IMG/VR virus record: IMGVR_UViG_2681813267_000006
Span: 1-4,976 of that record
Length of the DNA stretch: 4,976 bases
DNA from: a virus
Lineage: Duplodnaviria > Heunggongvirae > Uroviricota > Caudoviricetes
Reading direction: 5' to 3' (one strand)
Position numbers and translations under genes: made by a program. Below are positions 1 to 4,976 of this stretch, in pieces; position 1 is the first letter of the stretch; each line of letters opens with the position of its first letter. A model generated the notes under the pieces. The model was not told the origin of the DNA and searched no databases. It saw only the letters and a program-made list of their open reading frames with translations.

Positions 1-78
1 TAAAAAAAGAACAAATGGTAGTGTCCGCTATTGCCAGTACACCTCAAACAGATGTCTGGAAATATAGGGGCAAATCCA
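1..78 (+). mobile_element. Right terminus of an IS2-family (IS3 family) insertion sequence; the element body lies left of the window
   Basis: The sequence ending at 78 (ACAGATGTCTGGAAATATAGGGGCAAATCCA) matches the IS2 right inverted-repeat terminus as I remember it (outer ~32 bp). Further inward the sequence differs from my memory of IS2, so this is probably a relative rather than IS2 itself. The junction sits inside a holin reading frame. Confidence 0.6.
2..67 (+). CDS. C-terminal end of an IS transposase (OrfB-like), 5'-partial; runs in from the left edge
   Basis: The open frame from the window edge translates ...[12 protein letters not shown] and stops at TAG 65-67. The NRCLEI-stop ending matches the IS2 OrfB C-terminus as remembered. 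The stop lies inside the terminal inverted repeat, as is usual for IS3-family elements. Confidence 0.5.
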
Positions 79-222
79 CTTACGCTTATGACTTCCCAGC
101 ACACCAATCGCAGCCCACTGTGATGGACTGACCTGATCCAACCACTGCAAAAACCAGTAGCCGGCACTGCCGGCGGAGGTGCCGTAGGCAATGCCTGTTG
201 ATATTTTTTCCATCTGATACAT
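79..222 (-). pseudogene. S21-type pinholin (class II holin), 3'-truncated by the IS insertion
   Basis: Minus-strand ORF 28..222 begins [44 protein letters not shown], near-identical to the N-terminal ~44 residues of phage 21 S (dual-start motif, TMD1). After codon Ser (91-93) the frame gives [20 protein letters not shown], which has no similarity to S21 TMD2, and no alternative frame restores it. The break coincides with the IS terminus at 78. A G-rich SD-like stretch (GGGGGGCGGG) precedes the ATG at 220-222. Confidence 0.7.
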
Positions 223-252
223 ATCCCGCCCCCCGACAGACCTGTGCTATCG

Positions 253-288
253 GAAAGAAAAAAGGCCATCAGCAAAACTCTGATGGCC
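253..288 (-). terminator. Rho-independent terminator on the minus strand (tR'-like), just upstream of the holin
   Basis: Minus-strand hairpin GGCCATCAG-agttttg-CTGATGGCC (plus 264-288) followed by TTTTTTCTTTCC (plus 253-263). Confidence 0.6.
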
Positions 289-333
289 TGAATCACCTTT
301 ACCAATATTGTATGAAAAAACACGCACGACTAA

Positions 334-362
334 TTGACAATAATTTTCATTTCCATTAAAAA
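334..362 (+). promoter_or_regulatory. Candidate sigma70 promoter on the plus strand, antisense to the phage late transcript
   Basis: Perfect -35 TTGACA (334-339), 17-bp spacer, -10 TAAAAA (357-362, 4/6 to consensus). It lies about 35 bp upstream of a hairpin plus U-run on the same strand. Confidence 0.3.
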
Positions 363-397
363 AGATCGCGTAGCATTCTTAATTCATGAGGAACTTT

Positions 398-463
398 ACC
401 CGCCAGCAATCTGAGTAGCGAAAGCTGTTCATCCCCAATGTTTTTGCTGGCGGGTCCTTTTTT
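398..463 (+). terminator. Terminator-like structure on the plus strand: 12-bp stem, large structured loop, U-run
   Basis: ACCCGCCAGCAA (398-409) pairs with TTGCTGGCGGGT (444-455); the 34-nt loop contains an AGC-GAAA-GCT mini-hairpin; followed by CCTTTTTTC (456-464). The same inverted repeat would also fold in the minus-strand late transcript, but without a U-run. Confidence 0.35.
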
Positions 464-854
464 CTACGGTCCTCCTCCCCGGAGGGGGGCATTTCATTAT
501 TTTTCTAATCGTTACTGGTGAGAAGGCGGAAGAAAAAGCCAGTTCTTCGCCCCTAAATAACAGCATGATTCCAGTCCATGCAAAATCTGATTTCCAGCTC
601 ACACATACCGAGCGCTGTACAAAAAACCGCCAGCCAAGGCAGTTAAGAGTGTGTTCCCGGGGTTTGCTTAGAATATTTTGTAAGTTGTCCGAAGAGATAT
701 TTACAACACCAGAATGATGAATCATCAGTCCCCTGCCAGAGGTTCACTACGTAACCTGACCGACAATGCACCATTCTGGTGCTGAAAAAAGAGCACTGGA
801 ACTGCAACAAAACAACATCACAGAACAGGAGATGGTAAGGAGTCAGACATTCCC

Positions 855-868
855 ACACAATATTGTGT
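855..868. repeat. Perfect 14-bp palindrome ACACAATATTGTGT, candidate dimeric protein-binding site
   Basis: The sequence is its own reverse complement with no central spacer; it sits 35-48 bp downstream of the 3' end of the tRNA array. No U-run follows, so it is not a terminator. Confidence 0.4.
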
Positions 869-902
869 CAGTGCAAATAACAACCTTCGTCTCAAATCTC
901 GC

Positions 903-977
<75 letters not shown>

Positions 978-980
978 ATA

Positions 981-1056
<76 letters not shown>

Positions 1057-1058
1057 GC

Positions 1059-1135
1059 TGGCCCACCACCGAGGACTCGAACCTCGCACCGTCAACTTAG
1101 AAGGTTGATGCTCTATCCGGATGAGCTAGTGGTGG
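1059..1135 (-). tRNA. tRNA-Arg (anticodon UCU), phage-type
   Basis: Reverse complement CCACCACTAGCTCATCCGGATAGAGCATCAACCTTCTAAGTTGACGGTGCGAGGTTCGAGTCCTCGGTGGTGGGCCA; fully paired acceptor stem beginning with an unusual C1:G72, U8, A14, A20 and C35 (Arg identity elements), anticodon loop CTTCTAA, T-loop TTCGAGT, discriminator G73, encoded CCA. Confidence 0.8.
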
Positions 1136-1136
1136 T

Positions 1137-1213
1137 TGGTGGCCCTTGCTGGACTTGAACCAGCGACCTGGCGATTATGAGTCGCTCGCTCTGACCAACT
1201 GAGCTAAAGGGCC
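1137..1213 (-). tRNA. tRNA with CAU anticodon: Ile2 (lysidine, ileX/ileZ-like) or elongator Met
   Basis: Reverse complement GGCCCTTTAGCTCAGTTGGTCAGAGCGAGCGACTCATAATCGCCAGGTCGCTGGTTCAAGTCCAGCAAGGGCCACCA; the anticodon arm (GCGACTCATAATCGC) resembles E. coli ileX-type tRNA-Ile2 as remembered. Ile versus Met cannot be decided from sequence alone. Confidence 0.85.
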
Positions 1214-1222
1214 GGAGGCAGA

Positions 1223-1251
1223 ATAATAACCATATGTCATCACATCTGCAA
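1223..1251 (-). promoter_or_regulatory. Candidate promoter for the tRNA array
   Basis: Minus strand reads TTGCAG (plus 1246-1251), 17-bp spacer, TATTAT (plus 1223-1228, 5/6 to consensus), then 9 nt to the 5' end of the first tRNA. Confidence 0.35.
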
Positions 1252-1299
1252 ACTCATCTGACCACCAGCACGTTTAACGTCCTGTGCCGTTTTTCAGGT

Positions 1300-1324
1300 A
1301 TAAAAAAACCCGCATAAAGCGGGC
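1300..1324 (-). terminator. Short intrinsic terminator about 75 nt downstream of the Q-position gene
   Basis: Minus strand CCCGC-tttat-GCGGG followed by TTTTTTTA (plus A-run 1301-1308). Its position between the Q-like gene and the downstream tRNAs and lysis gene fits an early terminator of a short pR'-type transcript. Confidence 0.5.
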
Positions 1325-1402
1325 TCTTTCAAATGTCCATGTCTGCTATTCGCCTCGCGGTACAGCTTTGCGAAGCGTACAAGAATTGAAGCAGTTTTTA
1401 CG

Positions 1403-1957
1403 TCAAAAAGCAATAACTTTTTTCTCTATACCAAAAGCCATAACCATTGGTTTGTACAAAATAAATTCTGCCACCTTTAGCCAATGCTCAATGCGTCTTT
1501 CACAGGTTCTTAAACTCCATTTCGGGTGTGCATCATTCAGCAGTTCAGCCATTTTGCGTTTGGTCATCCCCCGCCCCTCATACCGTTGCCGAAGGACGCT
1601 AATCAATCCTGGATGCTCTGCCAGCACCTCACTTATGACCCGATCAATACATAACGCCTCTGCATCAGTACAATGCGCCAGCCAGCTCTTTTGCTTACCG
1701 TTAATCATATCCCGCAAAAAAGCCTCAAGTTCAGACTTGTTCAGACCTGCTTTTTTCATCCTCCGGAGCGCCTCGTTAATTGCCGTTTTTGTCAGCTTTT
1801 TAGAGGTCAACATCAGGTTAAACATATTCCCCGTCTTACCGCCACCAATATACGACCAGCGCCCCCACATACGTAGTTTTCCCTGAATCCAGACACTTTC
1901 CAGCGTGGTGAGACGAAGGTGTTCTCCGCTTTTTCCTGTATTCGTTGGGTAAATCAT
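1403..1957 (-). CDS. 185-aa protein in the late-antiterminator (Q) position; family not recognised
   Basis: ORF MIYPTNTGKSGEHLRL...EKKVIAF. The ATG at 1955-1957 is preceded by GGAGG at 7-nt spacing and overlaps the upstream stop (ATGA). The longer ORF from 2077 would overlap the upstream gene by ~120 nt and was not used. The Q call is positional only (last gene before a terminator, tRNAs and holin); the protein has only 3 Cys and no CxxC pairs, so it is not a lambda/82-type zinc-finger Q. Confidence 0.75.
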   Translation of the reverse strand: MIYPTNTGKSGEHLRLTTLESVWIQGKLRMWGRWSYIGGGKTGNMFNLMLTSKKLTKTAINEALRRMKKAGLNKSELEAFLRDMINGKQKSWLAHCTDAEALCIDRVISEVLAEHPGLISVLRQRYEGRGMTKRKMAELLNDAHPKWSLRTCERRIEHWLKVAEFILYKPMVMAFGIEKKVIAF

Positions 1958-2244
1958 AAATATCCCTCCTTTCTCCAGATTTCTTGTGTGCGAAAAACAC
2001 CTTCTGCATGCATCAGGCGTAATTCTTCTTTGGTGTAATCGCTGGTTTTTACCCGCCCGTCGATTAAATCGTGGCACGAGCTACAGGCAATCGCTGCCTG
2101 CATATCGTGTGGCTTTATCGCTGTTCCGCACGTTCCCGCCAGTCGGTAATGCGCCAGCACAGACGTTTCCGGATCGTGATTGCAGTAGCCAGGAATTCTG
2201 ACGGTGCACATCTGCCCCCGCGCCGCTTTACGTAAATCCACCAT
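1954..2244 (-). CDS. ybcO: YbcO-like DUF1364 phage protein (putative zinc-binding nuclease of the Nin region)
   Basis: 96-aa ORF MVDLRKAARGQMCTVRIPGYCNHDPETSVLAHYRL... with four conserved Cys, resembling DLP12 YbcO as remembered. Its start overlaps the upstream stop (TAATG) and its stop overlaps the downstream start (ATGA). Confidence 0.8.
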   Translation of the reverse strand: MVDLRKAARGQMCTVRIPGYCNHDPETSVLAHYRLAGTCGTAIKPHDMQAAIACSSCHDLIDGRVKTSDYTKEELRLMHAEGVFRTQEIWRKEGYL

Positions 2245-2843
2245 TACGCAAACTCCAGCAGCTGCGCGGCCACATTTTCGACTTGTTCCGGAGAGGAAAA
2301 TTTACGGAACAGAATCCAGTTCCACAGCACATTCAGAACAGATTTATAAACCTGCTGAAACTCGGTTTCGTCCATATTCGCAAAAGCGATGGATTTTGCC
2401 CGACGCCCGCGGCTACCGTCCGGATAAAAATGTTCGGTGTAAAATCCAGCCTGAATGGTTACCCACTCGCGAAAAGCCTCAAACGACTTTAGCAATGCCG
2501 TATCCCGGGTTCTGCGTGTCGCAACTGTATTCAGATATTGCTCTGCGGCTTCGCTCAGAGCTGGCGTATGTTCCCGACCTACTGATTCGCACAGGTAATC
2601 AACGAAACCAGACAGCAGTTCTCGTTCGCGAGGCGTGATCGCCCCACCGACCGGAGTCCAGTAATCGAAACCCAGTTGCAGGAGTTTGAAAAAACGCTTG
2701 TGGAATGCGTAGTTACACACACGCTTAAAGTCTGCGTGTATCCACTCACCTATTTTGATTTGATGCAGAAAATCGCAACTCTCCGGCGTCGCCGGGAGAA
2801 GTAATCCGGAAGAGGTTTGTTTGACCAGTTGTATATGTGCCAT
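2244..2843 (-). CDS. Conserved lambdoid Nin-region protein (~199 aa), possibly YbcN-like; function unknown
   Basis: ORF from ATG 2841-2843 (MAHIQLVKQTSSGLLLPATPE...AAQLLEFA), with GGAG about 10 nt upstream. The longer ORF from 2885 has no ribosome-binding site. It is translationally coupled to the ybcO-like gene. The family assignment is tentative and from memory only. Confidence 0.75.
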   Translation of the reverse strand: MAHIQLVKQTSSGLLLPATPESCDFLHQIKIGEWIHADFKRVCNYAFHKRFFKLLQLGFDYWTPVGGAITPRERELLSGFVDYLCESVGREHTPALSEAAEQYLNTVATRRTRDTALLKSFEAFREWVTIQAGFYTEHFYPDGSRGRRAKSIAFANMDETEFQQVYKSVLNVLWNWILFRKFSSPEQVENVAAQLLEFA

Positions 2844-2881
2844 CGGCTTTCTCCGGTGGCACGGTGTTACACAGCAGGAGT

Positions 2882-3169
2882 TCAATCCTGCTCAAGATTG
2901 TAGATGAGTTTATTCTTCAGCAAAAGCAGAAAACCAGCCTTAAAACCAATCTCTTTCAAAACCCGTAATGATGTGACAAATTCGTCCTCACGCAAAATAA
3001 AACCGTCCGTCAGAAGTCCATTACAAAAATAAAATAACACAGCACCGCTCTTCCTTTGTTGAGATTGCAAACATCTAATGCGGCAATGGCTGACAATCGC
3101 TCCATTCTCAACGCGCACAGCATAGAGGCCATTTTCACTAAAAATTTCACGCAATTCTTCGATTTTCAT
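2882..3169 (-). CDS. Hypothetical 95-aa protein
   Basis: ORF MKIEELREIFSENGLYAVRVENGAIVSHCRIRCLQ...; GGAAGGA about 8 nt upstream of the ATG at 3167-3169; own promoter-like element upstream; lies just downstream of the hok terminator. No recognisable family. Confidence 0.55.
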   Translation of the reverse strand: MKIEELREIFSENGLYAVRVENGAIVSHCRIRCLQSQQRKSGAVLFYFCNGLLTDGFILREDEFVTSLRVLKEIGFKAGFLLLLKNKLIYNLEQD

Positions 3170-3250
3170 CTTCAGAATCCTTCCAGATAAATAGCTCTCC
3201 CCTGTTCGGGGTCCATCCCTCTTCTCCCTGCGCGCTACTTAAGTGAGTCG

Positions 3251-3278
3251 ATTCTATCTGCGAAGGTGCGCGAATCAA
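3251..3278 (-). promoter_or_regulatory. Candidate promoter for the 95-aa ORF
   Basis: Minus strand TTGATT (plus 3273-3278), 16-bp spacer, TAGAAT (plus 3251-3256). These are the same hexamers as the predicted hok promoter. Confidence 0.4.
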
Positions 3279-3287
3279 ATTCACCGG

Positions 3288-3343
3288 AAATAAACAACAA
3301 AAAACCCGCCGAAACGCTGAGAGATCACAGCGATGGGCGGGTT
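3288..3343 (-). terminator. Rho-independent terminator ending the hok transcript
   Basis: Minus strand AACCCGCC ... GGCGGGTT with an internal CGCTG/CAGCG sub-stem, followed by TTTTTTGTTGTTT (plus A-run 3290-3304). Confidence 0.6.
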
Positions 3344-3418
3344 AAGTGCGGGTGCGTTGAGGATGCCTGACACATCAGAGGTGGGCGGGGATGGGATCAG
3401 CTCCCCGCCCGGTCACTC

Positions 3419-3574
3419 TTACTTCCTGGATTCGTAGTCTACGAAGACAGCGACCTCCGTCTGGCCGGTTCGGATTCGTACCTCACAGAGGTCTTTCCTC
3501 GTTACCAGTGCCGTCACTATGACGGTTAAACAGATGACGATCAGGGCGATTAACATCGCCTTTTGCTGCTTCAT
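3419..3574 (-). CDS. hok: Hok/Gef-family type I toxin (51 aa)
   Basis: MKQQKAMLIALIVICLTVIVTALVTRKDLCEVRIRTGQTEVAVFVDYESRK: single transmembrane helix plus conserved C-terminal motif, nearly identical to HokD/HokC as remembered except at the extreme C-terminus. AAGGAG lies about 9 nt upstream of the ATG. Confidence 0.9.
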   Translation of the reverse strand: MKQQKAMLIALIVICLTVIVTALVTRKDLCEVRIRTGQTEVAVFVDYESRK

Positions 3575-3631
3575 AGCCTGCTTCTCCTTGCCTTTCGGCA
3601 TGTAAGAGGCTAACCTACATGTGCAAAGCAT
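3419..3631 (-). CDS. mok: mok-like overlapping reading frame (in-frame N-terminal extension of hok, 70 aa)
   Basis: The in-frame upstream ATG at 3629-3631 gives MLCTCRLASYMPKGKEKQA + Hok, the same arrangement as MokC/HokC. Confidence 0.55.
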   Translation of the reverse strand: MLCTCRLASYMPKGKEKQAMKQQKAMLIALIVICLTVIVTALVTRKDLCEVRIRTGQTEVAVFVDYESRK

Positions 3632-3685
3632 GAAATTGGCCTCAGATTAATGTTAAGCGTCTTGCCGGACGCGTAATGTTAACTG
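3623..3685 (+). ncRNA. sok: Predicted Sok-type antisense RNA (coordinates approximate)
   Basis: Expected from hok/sok architecture. Candidate plus-strand promoter TTGCCT (3588-3593), 17-bp spacer, TAACCT (3611-3616); hairpin GCGTC-ttgccg-GACGC (3657-3672) followed by GTAATGTT. The transcript would be complementary to the mok start region. The promoter match is weak. Confidence 0.25.
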
Positions 3686-3750
3686 GGGCTTTTCTCTATC
3701 TGCCTTTTGGTGTTCATGCCTGAAGCAGATAGCCTCAAGCACCCGCAGTC

Positions 3751-3780
3751 ATTCTACTTACCTCGCCAATATGAAATCAA
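3751..3780 (-). promoter_or_regulatory. Candidate hok/mok promoter
   Basis: Minus strand TTGATT (plus 3775-3780), 18-bp spacer, TAGAAT (plus 3751-3756). The predicted transcript 5' end near 3745 carries UGCGGGUGC, which is complementary to GCACCCGCA (plus 3347-3355) just upstream of the terminator, resembling the 5'/3' pairing of hok mRNAs. Confidence 0.35.
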
Positions 3781-3801
3781 TCAGAAAGGTGCCCCATAAA
3801 A

Positions 3802-4488
3802 TCACTCCTTCTCTTCTTTACCGTAGTGGAGTTGACCAATTTTGATAAGAGGGCGTCCCTGAGATTTGCGGTGTAGATTGGTATCGCGCAGAGAATACAC
3901 ACAGCCACAATATTCCTGCTGATAGAATTTTTCGCGCTTGCTGATTTCAATCATACGGGACGAGCCGCCCTGCTTGCGCCAGTTATAATCCCAGTACACC
4001 ATGCCCGGATAATGCGCGACGGCTCGCCGCCCACAGTCGTTAACCTGCTGCATATTTTTCCAGCGTGAAATGCCCAGTGAACTGCTGATCACACTGAAAC
4101 CATTTTCAGCGGCGTACAGCGCTGTCCGCTCAAAACGCATGTCAAAACACATGGTGCAACGGATCCCTCGTTCGGGCTCCCATTCCATTCCTTTGGCTCG
4201 TTCAAACCAGTTGTCTGTGTCGTAATCAGCATCAATAAACGGCACGCCGTGTTGTTCAGCAAAGCGAATATTCTCATCCTTACGAATTAAATACTCTTTC
4301 TGAGGATGAATGTTCGGGTTGTAGAAAAAGATGGTGTAGTCGATTCCCGAGGCCTGAAGCGCCTCCATCACCTCACCGGAACATGGAGCACAGCAAGAGT
4401 GCAGTAGTAGTTTGTTTGCCCCGTTTGGGAGCTCCAATTTGGGCCGTTTGAAATCAGCAACTGTCATAAATATGTTTATTGGGGTCAT
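3802..4488 (-). CDS. queH: QueH-type epoxyqueuosine reductase homologue (DUF208 family), 228 aa
   Basis: ORF contains the family hallmarks [18 protein letters not shown], RCxMCFxMR and YCGCVYS. The start is uncertain: ATG 4486-4488 or ATG 4465-4467, neither with a strong SD. Confidence 0.8.
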
Positions 4489-4635
4489 AAAAATATCAAA
4501 GAGTGTAGCATTAGAACGGGGCTATCGGAAACAGATGTGTGACTGCTCCCCGCCCTTTCGGGTGGTCTCCTGATGATTTGAGGGTGCAGAAATCCCTCCG
4601 GTTAAGGATTAAATTTTTAACAGTGCTAAATTTAA

Positions 4636-4976
4636 TTATTCAGTTCTGGATTTTGTCGCCCTGCGTATCCGCGCTTTCGCGTTACGCTCAATCTGTATCA
4701 GCTTTTCTATATTTCTCCGCCTTTCCTGTTCCTCCTGGCGCAATAGCCTTACATCATCTGCCAGTCTGGTTTCTCTTTTTGCCACAGAGAGCATCCAGTC
4801 AAACGGCTCCACAACCGCACCGCAGATTTTACAGCGGACCTGACGCTCTTTTTCGTCAACCCGGACAGAGGCGTGATGGCAATATGGTCTTTCCGATGGT
4901 TCATAAAGAAAATTAACCTGATTACGTGGGTCATCCTCTTTTACCGGAAATAAAACGATATTGCTTAACTCATCTT
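4636..4976 (-). CDS. 3' end of an unidentified protein (5'-partial; start lies right of the window)
   Basis: The minus-strand frame is open for 112 codons from the window edge to TAA (4636-4638): DELSNIVLFPVKEDDPRNQVNFLYEPSERPYCHHASVRVDEKERQVRCKICGAVVEPFDWMLSVAKRETRLADDVRLLRQEEQERRRNIEKLIQIERNAKARIRRATKSRTE. Protein-like composition with a C-HH...C-x2-C motif and a basic, probably helical tail. The provided ORF track omits it because it has no in-window start. Confidence 0.55.
   Translation of the reverse strand, partial: DELSNIVLFPVKEDDPRNQVNFLYEPSERPYCHHASVRVDEKERQVRCKICGAVVEPFDWMLSVAKRETRLADDVRLLRQEEQERRRNIEKLIQIERNAKARIRRATKSRTE

Follow-up and report, generated by a model that had tools for sequence, protein, structure and literature searches.

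The window analysed here, a stretch of 4,976 nt (IMG/VR record IMGVR_UViG_2681813267_000006, positions 1 to 4,976), covers the late-control region of a lambdoid prophage. Every phage gene lies on the minus strand, and the late-strand order is Q, tR', tRNAs, the interval under study and the holin (Table 1). Because the holin gene is cut after codon 44, the prophage copy in the window is defective. In the closest complete genomes, the match to the window begins only at position 90. From 230 to 900 (671 bp), the window is 100% identical to the copy in CFSAN029787, which lies beside an intact holin gene.

Late-strand elements between the tRNA array and the holin

A first-pass annotation of this DNA had described some 600 bp, between the tRNA array and a "tR'-like" terminator, as free of ORFs. 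The lack of credible ORFs holds (see below), but the interval is not empty, since it contains a terminator-like hairpin (644 to 625) and a long hairpin (704-784), both on the late strand. The label tR', in turn, belongs elsewhere: the hairpin at 263-289 is a terminator on the late strand, immediately upstream of the holin, and the likely tR' is the hairpin at 1323 to 1302. Hairpins equivalent to 263-289 are found upstream of the holins at the PasA locus, the PP4 locus and locus L061. The hairpin at 625-644 is faced by plus-strand terminators at 455-505. Positions 604-900, which include both the hairpin at 625-644 and the long hairpin, lie outside the sRNA module described below.

The hairpin at 704-784 is strongly strand-specific: the minus strand folds at -40.4 kcal/mol (z -4.05), compared with a z of -1.1 for the plus strand. 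At least 119 IMG/VR contigs contain its core motif; of 128 copies, 117 are located at most 260 nt downstream of the 3' end of a tRNA-Gly gene. Across 27 distinct sequences, the 30 pairs are kept in 98% of cells, compared with 33-57% when the pairing is slid. Double changes occur at five pairs, while 15 pairs vary only via G.U. The hairpin has no family match in Rfam, and an ORF that starts inside it is not conserved. The hairpin is a real conserved RNA structure, supported by covariation, and lies in the trailer of the phage tRNA operon or of the late transcript; as to its role, our guess is a processing or stabilising hairpin. A further terminator just before it (at ~790, minus strand) was considered and dropped, as folding gave no support (z -0.2).

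Table 1. Features of the window and of the candidate sRNA gene, with positions in the window.
Feature	Position	Strand	Remarks
QueH gene	3802-4488	minus	first in the late-transcription order listed
hok/sok locus			after QueH in late order; Rfam sok, 117 bits
DUF1367 gene, then DUF1364 gene			in late order after hok/sok, before Q
Q-type antiterminator gene	1403-2077	minus	ends at 1403
Likely tR'	1323 to 1302	minus	CCCGC-UUUAU-GCGGG-U7, ~80 nt past the Q stop
Phage tRNA array Met/Ile2-Arg-Thr-Gly	903-1213	minus	four tRNA genes
Interval under study			0.68 kb, between tRNA array and holin
81-nt RNA hairpin	704-784	minus	~120 nt downstream of tRNA-Gly
Terminator-like hairpin	625-644 (644 to 625)	minus	U run 624-618; faces the sRNA terminators of the plus strand
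Mosaic sRNA module	254-603		350 bp, common to all alleles and contexts
Second conserved island	553-603		right module edge; 6% difference vs 23-30% in adjacent sequence
Second hairpin, then U-rich stretch	469-490	plus	-15.5 kcal/mol, z -2.1; allele-specific
Predicted sRNA	369-464	plus	~95 nt; 5' end inferred from the -10 position
U6 tail (TTTTTT)	458-463	plus	two bases past the outer stem
C-rich internal loop	432-443	plus	12 nt, UCCCCAAUGUUU; conserved
Inner 8-bp helix	412-419/424-431	plus	GAAA cap at 420-423
Outer stem, perfect 12 bp	398-409/444-455	plus	ACCCGCCAGCAA pairs with TTGCTGGCGGGT
Variable, AU-rich 5' part of the sRNA	369-397	plus	single-stranded; no pairs in the centroid structure
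Sigma-70-type promoter of the candidate sRNA	334-362	plus	-35 TTGACA 334-339, 17-bp spacer, -10 TAAAAA 357-362
Intrinsic terminator	263-289	minus	10-bp stem and U6; ~40 nt upstream of the holin start
Class II holin gene, 5' part (44 codons)	90-222	minus	start at 222, truncated at 90

A candidate sRNA gene on the opposite strand

On the plus strand, the first-pass annotation had picked out a TTGACA element with a 17-bp spacer and a TAAAAA element, followed by a 12-bp stem with a GAAA-capped mini-hairpin and a U6 run. All of these are present (Table 1). The -10 element is weak and A-rich and lacks the conserved final T in the window allele, so the strength of the promoter is uncertain. In the commonest allele, the promoter can also be read as TTGACA-18-AAAAAT. 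The promoter pattern has one match in the window compared with 0.06 expected, and 12 of 200 shuffled sequences contain a match; by itself the pattern is therefore only suggestive.

The plus-strand RNA 369-466 has a folding energy of -31.6 kcal/mol compared with -19.1 +/- 2.9 kcal/mol for dinucleotide shuffles (z -4.2; 0 of 200 shuffles as stable), and the hairpin on its own (396-457) reaches z -6.1. The same fold is recovered in the AR_0086 allele (z -5.1). As a terminator the candidate is atypical, with an interior of 34 nt, and a consensus terminator scan made no call. The outer stem folds almost equally well on the opposite strand, so that the strand was assigned from the promoter and the U run. 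The inner GAAA-capped helix, which includes two G.U pairs, forms on the plus strand only. The U6 tail behind a stem and the AU-rich unpaired stretch at 369-397 correspond to the layout of Hfq-class sRNAs; the tail is slightly shorter than the U7 of PasA and PasC. The first pass had predicted a plus-strand RNA of ~95 nt that has a promoter and a terminator of its own; fold statistics, conservation and parallels to PasA/PasC lend backing to this prediction, and the RNA is read here as a putative transcript.

Two further hairpins had been proposed, at ~470-490 and at 525-551. Both exist in the window, but neither is conserved in other alleles; for the hairpin at 469-490, 60% of the columns are variable. 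By analogy with PasA, for which a longer form has been described, the hairpin at 469-490 may serve as a back-up terminator that yields a longer minor form, perhaps of about 135 nt.

Conservation was assessed by segment as the mean pairwise difference across five lineages. The promoter block differs by 9%, compared with 16-20% in its own flanks, and TTGACA is invariant, with the spacing and an A-rich -10 element retained in all lineages. The outer stem, the inner loop region and the U tract differ by 0-5%. In contrast, the single-stranded 5' part of the sRNA differs by 20% and the sequence flanking the sRNA gene by 16-30%. The promoter and the hairpin are thus the best-conserved parts of the module, and the 5' region of the RNA is variable. 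The first-pass annotation had considered that homologous intervals might turn out as decayed genes with neither promoter nor hairpin conserved; in the lineages compared, both are conserved. It had also suggested a covariation analysis of these intervals, which bore out the conservation of the hairpin but yielded no covariation in its stems: these are near-invariant among 13 alleles from 44 IMG/VR contigs and five lineages. Since they hardly vary, the conservation of the sRNA could also reflect recent spread. In module remnants, the hairpin is intact save for one uncompensated G-to-A change in the plasmid allele; the other stem change, found in one contig, is an A-to-G change resulting in a G.U pair. 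Next to intact holins, the late-strand terminator at 263-289 has no mismatches, but two to three are present in plasmid and island remnants.

The candidate sRNA gene is part of a mosaic module with well-defined edges. Alignments to every other context end at 603 and diverge beyond it, and plasmid and island remnants begin at 254-256. The conserved right-edge island and the sRNA block occur together (in 1423 and 1427 genomes, respectively); the island showed no significant structure when folded on either strand. A search with the promoter-plus-hairpin block (325-475) located the module in 1427 of the 5426 complete E. coli genomes, with 912 sites on chromosomes and 642 on plasmids. [quoted passage not shown]

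The module occurs in three settings. The first comprises prophages with an intact holin that also carry the serum-resistance gene iss. The second comprises ColV-type plasmids such as pS88 (pECOS88, NC_011747.1, module at about 111.7-112.1 kb) and D10, where the module lies 0.47 kb from iss on the same strand; holin and endolysin (S and R) are deleted there, and only Rz/Rz1 fragments remain. The plasmid allele is identical in pS88 and D10, and the ~640 plasmid copies probably represent one lineage. In the third setting, an island remnant in Nissle 1917 and EE72d, the module lies between IS remnants about 2 kb from papI; the distance in Nissle is 2.2 kb, and the Nissle copy is found around 4683242-4683382 of NZ_CM189243.1. 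Existing records carry no credible annotation at the module in any of the three settings. A literature search for the exact RNA sequence returned no published match, and no matching sequence was present in the supplements of the S. flexneri M90T TSS-mapping paper.

Possible function of the module and alternative readings

On balance, we regard positions 334-464 as an autonomous sRNA gene of the moron type, which from its sequence would be expressed in the lysogen, have an Hfq-dependent layout and act in trans. By analogy, the candidate is probably an Hfq-type regulator. The promoter with its perfect -35 element would fire in the lysogen, directed away from the holin and against late transcription, and the ~95-nt transcript would stop at the structured intrinsic terminator formed by the 12-bp GC-rich stem and U6. 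The conserved 3' terminator and U tail, with a variable AU-rich single-stranded part upstream, would suit an Hfq-dependent base-pairing sRNA. Such an RNA would most likely pair in trans with host or prophage mRNAs, or with other sRNAs, and contact would probably be made through the single-stranded 5' part and through the C-rich internal loop, which is conserved. An antisense effect on the late transcript, if any, would be secondary. Observed here are the sequence features, how the RNA folds relative to shuffles, which segments are conserved, where the module occurs and the parallel in position; that the gene is transcribed, where its RNA begins and ends, that it depends on Hfq and that it acts in trans are inferred.

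What speaks most for trans action is that the module persists in places where there can be no late transcript. Promoter and hairpin are retained without the holin, the lysis genes or the late promoter on ColV plasmids and in the Nissle 1917 remnant, and in the window itself the holin is truncated. This survival points to a function that is independent of the late transcript, or to none. It also weighs, if only indirectly, against control of late read-through, a role that had been suggested for the RNA in the first pass and is not supported.

A more far-reaching version is possible but tentative. According to it, the module is a domesticated, hitherto undescribed sRNA family of E. coli that derives from one of several interchangeable antisense cassettes carried by lambdoid prophages right before the holin and regulates host or virulence genes in trans, with the 81-nt hairpin as a second new, conserved RNA element of the late transcript. 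Promoter and terminator would have been kept past the decay of the phage, beside iss (ColV/pS88), near pap (Nissle and related strains) and in Shigella.

The RNA might instead act in cis as an antisense lock on the lysis cassette, which we consider unlikely. Late-strand leakage from tRNA or cargo promoters would be paired by the RNA and the holin silenced in the lysogen, together with the terminator at 263-289, by duplex cleavage or transcriptional collision. Lambda OOP RNA offers a model: this short RNA, antisense to a phage mRNA, is transcribed from a constitutive promoter of its own and ends at an intrinsic terminator; it overlaps the cII coding region and acts in cis via RNase III. The window RNA likewise has a predicted promoter and terminator of its own and is fully complementary to a phage transcript; unlike OOP, it overlaps an untranslated stretch, and its module outlives the phage. 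The antisense geometry upstream of the lysis gene, as proposed earlier, stands, with complementarity to the late transcript 150-240 nt before the holin start. Moreover, the unrelated PasA, PasC, PP4, PapR-like (L085) and window RNAs share position and orientation beside the holin, so that the position may matter, and the interval holds three terminator-like sites in series on the late strand. However, the module remains intact in the absence of the holin or late promoter while the adjacent late-strand terminator decays, and the ribosome-binding site of the holin lies outside the RNA. Neither the window RNA nor the PP4 RNA paired better with the initiation region of its cognate holin than shuffled RNAs did; for PasA, such pairing was marginal (p 0.03). 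PasA and PasC, in addition, show many trans partners in RIL-seq.

Still less probable, in our view, is that there is no dedicated RNA, and that a chance or vestigial promoter-like site is combined with a hairpin that merely stops stray antisense transcription. The wide distribution would then reflect hitch-hiking with iss or the lysis cassette and IS-mediated spread. A chance of ~6% for the promoter pattern, the weak -10 element, the lack of covariation, the single allele of the plasmid copies and the small number of lineages (about five) are all compatible with this. Yet every lineage retains TTGACA, spacing and -10, and the hairpin loops are as conserved as the stems while the surroundings diverge by 16-30%. 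Conservation of promoter and loops amid such divergence is not expected of a mere terminator or of neutral DNA.

There is little to recommend an element that acts at the DNA level, in which the 12-bp inverted repeat and its 34-bp spacer would serve, at a mosaic boundary, for protein binding or recombination. The repeat is perfect, its outer stem is equally stable on both strands, and the module has sharp mosaic boundaries that are shared across contexts; but the repeat lies ~150 bp from either boundary, the inner GAAA-capped helix forms on the plus strand only, and U run and promoter are found on the matching strand. A decayed protein-coding cargo gene, also raised in the first pass, or a small peptide gene is the most improbable reading, and we reject it: although mechanical ORFs of 37-98 aa exist and a 10-codon ORF (MRNFTRQQSE, 386-418) is open in five of five alleles, eight ORFs of the interval had no match in Pfam or PHROGs, the 98-aa frame runs across a mosaic junction and its length in near-identical copies is anywhere between 17 and >149 aa, a 63-aa ORF annotated by RefSeq in another allele is closed in the window, and the 10-codon ORF lacks a Shine-Dalgarno sequence and carries five non-synonymous substitutions and one synonymous substitution.

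Comparison with known prophage sRNAs

Prophage sRNAs encoded between Q and the lysis genes, such as AsxR, AgvB, PasA-D, Esr41 and PapR, rewire host regulation in pathogenic E. coli and have so far been catalogued mainly in EHEC and EPEC. If the reading as an autonomous sRNA gene is true, the candidate extends this catalogue to a family present in about a quarter of complete E. coli genomes, with carriers among extraintestinal pathogens, the probiotic Nissle 1917, Shigella and, near iss, ColV virulence plasmids. The family is unnamed, absent from Rfam and from annotation, and unusually widespread; its kind is already known. In practice, the analysis yields precise coordinates for a Northern blot or the re-analysis of RNA-seq data.

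Searches for a known relative of the candidate gave no significant hit. Rfam 15, in which AgvB, AsxR, Esr41 and STnc100 are included, returned no sRNA match for it at E<=1 over the whole window or at E<=10 over 225-905, and the window RNA was not found to mimic a known sRNA target site. In O157 prophages, the moron site downstream of PR' holds convergent sRNA genes (Tree et al., 2014, PMC4104026). AsxR is located 282 bp 3' of stx2AB and is antisense to stx2AB; both AsxR and AgvB vary in their 5' part and are conserved in their 3' terminator part (Tree et al., PMC4104026). The candidate resembles both in its moron slot 3' of PR', in being antisense to or convergent with late-strand elements, and in combining a conserved 3' terminator part with a variable 5' part. 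In contrast to AsxR and AgvB, which measure 51-60 nt with a conserved 3' region of ~42 nt, the window RNA measures ~95 nt and has a different 3' region.

The closest parallels are found in PasA and PasC of EPEC E2348/69, which have been validated by Northern blot and RIL-seq (Pearl Mizrahi et al., 2021, PMC8550237, Table S6) and have homologues in O157, EcOnc51/52 (PMC8550237; 10.64898/2026.05.13.724894). The holin/lysozyme operon directly adjoins pasA, pasC and pasD1 (Zhu, Shabalina and Storz, 2026, bioRxiv 10.64898/2026.05.13.724894). PasA and PasC are each flanked by a cargo esterase gene on one side and the holin on the other, and both are encoded on the opposite strand: in locus L003, PasA occupies 2916-3000 on the minus strand and the holin lies at 3214 on the plus strand, while in the window the RNA lies at 369-464 on the plus strand and the holin starts at 222 on the minus strand. 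PasA and PasC consist of TTGACA, a 17-bp spacer, an A-rich -10 (TCAGAA), ~60-80 nt, a GCCAGC...GCTGGC stem and U7. A second cassette of the same design follows PasA, and the promoter design of PasA goes with an abundant RNA.

The window RNA shares with PasA and PasC the slot between cargo and holin of a lambdoid prophage and the antisense orientation, a promoter composed of TTGACA, a 17-bp spacer and an A-rich -10, and an end in a U run. Its terminator stem likewise begins with GCCAGC, and a GAAAG motif is present in the loop, as in PasA. A possible longer read-through form is a further common trait, as is the restriction to Escherichia/Shigella, which applies to PasA-D as well (10.64898/2026.05.13.724894). 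The size is similar too, 79-85 nt for PasA and PasC compared with ~95 nt for the window RNA. However, the terminator of the window RNA contains, in addition, a GAAA-capped helix and an internal loop of 12 nt. The window module leans to ExPEC chromosomes, ColV plasmids and Shigella and not to EPEC/EHEC; and PasA and PasC are experimentally validated, whereas the window RNA is predicted from sequence. Tests of homology gave no significant similarity: a covariance model built from seven PasA/PasC-type sequences scored the window RNA at 8.4 bits (E about 6), compared with 55-105 bits for true members. Blastn detected no similarity between the window RNA and PasA/PasC, and local alignments stayed within the range of shuffled sequences (p 0.03-0.26). 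A GCCAGC-type terminator stem is also present in a sequence of L198 and L200 that we read as AgvB-like.

A further antisense module lies upstream of the holin of prophage PP4 in E2348/69 (locus L006, 2113-2202, minus strand). It shares the promoter core ATTGACAATAAT, position and orientation with the window RNA, and as in the window design a GCCAGCG...CGCTGGC stem is followed by a U run. When the window-family model was run over 33 other holin-upstream or related loci, the PP4 module was the best non-self hit, at a non-significant 17.3 bits (E about 0.9). With the Rfam model of Esr41 (RF02676; gathering score 102), the PP4 module reaches 32 bits; unlike this weakly Esr41-like module, the window RNA has no Esr41 match. 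The relation of the candidate to the PP4/Esr41-like cassette is remote at most.

PapR of UTI89 is a prophage-borne, Hfq-dependent sRNA of at least 167 nt whose seed reaches the terminator stem (Khandige et al., 2015, PMC4546395). It matches the type EcOnc08/21/42 of the table of Pearl Mizrahi et al. (PMC8550237). The distance of 2.2 kb between the Nissle copy of the module and papI had raised the possibility that the candidate is PapR itself, which was rejected because the published primers correspond to an unrelated sequence. Like the window RNA, a PapR-related sequence lies antisense and upstream of a holin in the IMG/VR locus L085. Together, these loci suggest a general rule, namely that unrelated sRNA cassettes are accommodated on the antisense strand in the stretch immediately before the holin. 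In architecture and position, the candidate matches validated prophage sRNAs, while the models of known families fail to recognise it; it would therefore be a new sRNA of a known kind.

A late-strand hairpin and a tR' candidate

The late strand of the window carries an RNA hairpin downstream of the tRNA-Gly gene, and its fold is strand-specific, with a z of -4.05 on the minus strand vs -1.1 on the plus strand. The hairpin is found in at least 119 IMG/VR contigs, and the tRNA-Gly gene precedes it in nearly every copy. In an alignment of 27 distinct sequences 98% of cells keep their pairing and double changes occur at five pairs; covariation thus supports the structure, which no Rfam family matches. 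A second hairpin on the same strand, placed ~80 nt past the stop codon of Q, is likely the true tR' of the late promoter. It is missing from the output of the consensus terminator scan, and Rfam returns only a weak IsrK-like match at 1303-1376 (19.9 bits, E 0.46).

Features of the window and of the compared loci
Feature	Location	Strand	Setting or detail
81-nt RNA hairpin	window 704-784	minus	~120 nt 3' of tRNA-Gly
tR' candidate	window 1302-1323	minus	CCCGC-UUUAU-GCGGG then U7
Second conserved island	window 553-603		right edge of sRNA module; 6% difference vs 23-30% alongside
Complete hok/sok-type type I toxin-antitoxin locus	window 3419-3744	minus	inside prophage
Isolated sRNA-module remnant	L008/L009 (Nissle 1917, EE72d) 2501-2641		flanked by IS3- and ISL3-family fragments
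Unannotated antisense cassette	L006 2113-2202 (E2348/69 PP4)	opposite to holin	upstream of PP4 holin
Second complete promoter-plus-terminator cassette	L003 2768-2831 (E2348/69 PP2)		just 3' of PasA
PapR-resembling sequence (...CACGTTTTTTGTTCCTTGCCGCCCGTATCCATATGCGGGCTTTTTTTT)	L085 (IMG/VR)	antisense	~130-180 nt upstream of holin

Surroundings of the candidate sRNA module

The conserved island at the module edge accompanies the sRNA block throughout (1423 vs 1427 genomes); it has a significant fold on neither strand, and no obvious promoter was found in it. The module remnant in Nissle 1917 and EE72d lies ~2.2 kb away from papI, a gene of the P-fimbrial operon. At the left end of the window (1-132), the holin gene is cut at position 90, after codon 44. 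Positions 47-78, TGGATTTGCCCCTATATTTCCAGACATCTGTT on the minus strand, are presumably an IS2 terminal inverted repeat; this 32-mer recurs in six other loci examined, and in S. flexneri-type genomes window 1-46 is fused directly to position 133. The hok/sok locus comprises a Hok-like ORF (3419-3631) and an Rfam sok match of 117 bits (3569-3744).

Antisense cassettes upstream of holins

Made up of a predicted promoter (ATTGACAATAAT), a stem (GCCAGCGCAGA...TCTGCGCTGGC) and a U6 run, the PP4 cassette overlaps a CDS annotated as hypothetical. It is on the other strand from PasD1 (L006 1761-1933) and ~180-270 nt downstream of it; the two do not overlap. The PP2 cassette, in tandem with PasA, probably accounts for the 236-nt 'minor' PasA form in the published sRNA table (PMC8550237). 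Our impression is that the holin-proximal antisense slot, just upstream of the holin and on the opposite strand, hosts interchangeable sRNA cassettes, and this is strengthened because the PapR-resembling sequence of L085 fills the same slot as the candidate sRNA of the window. Compared with known prophage sRNAs, the PP2 cassette is PasC-like in design, and the PP4 cassette shows a weak likeness to Esr41 (32 bits).
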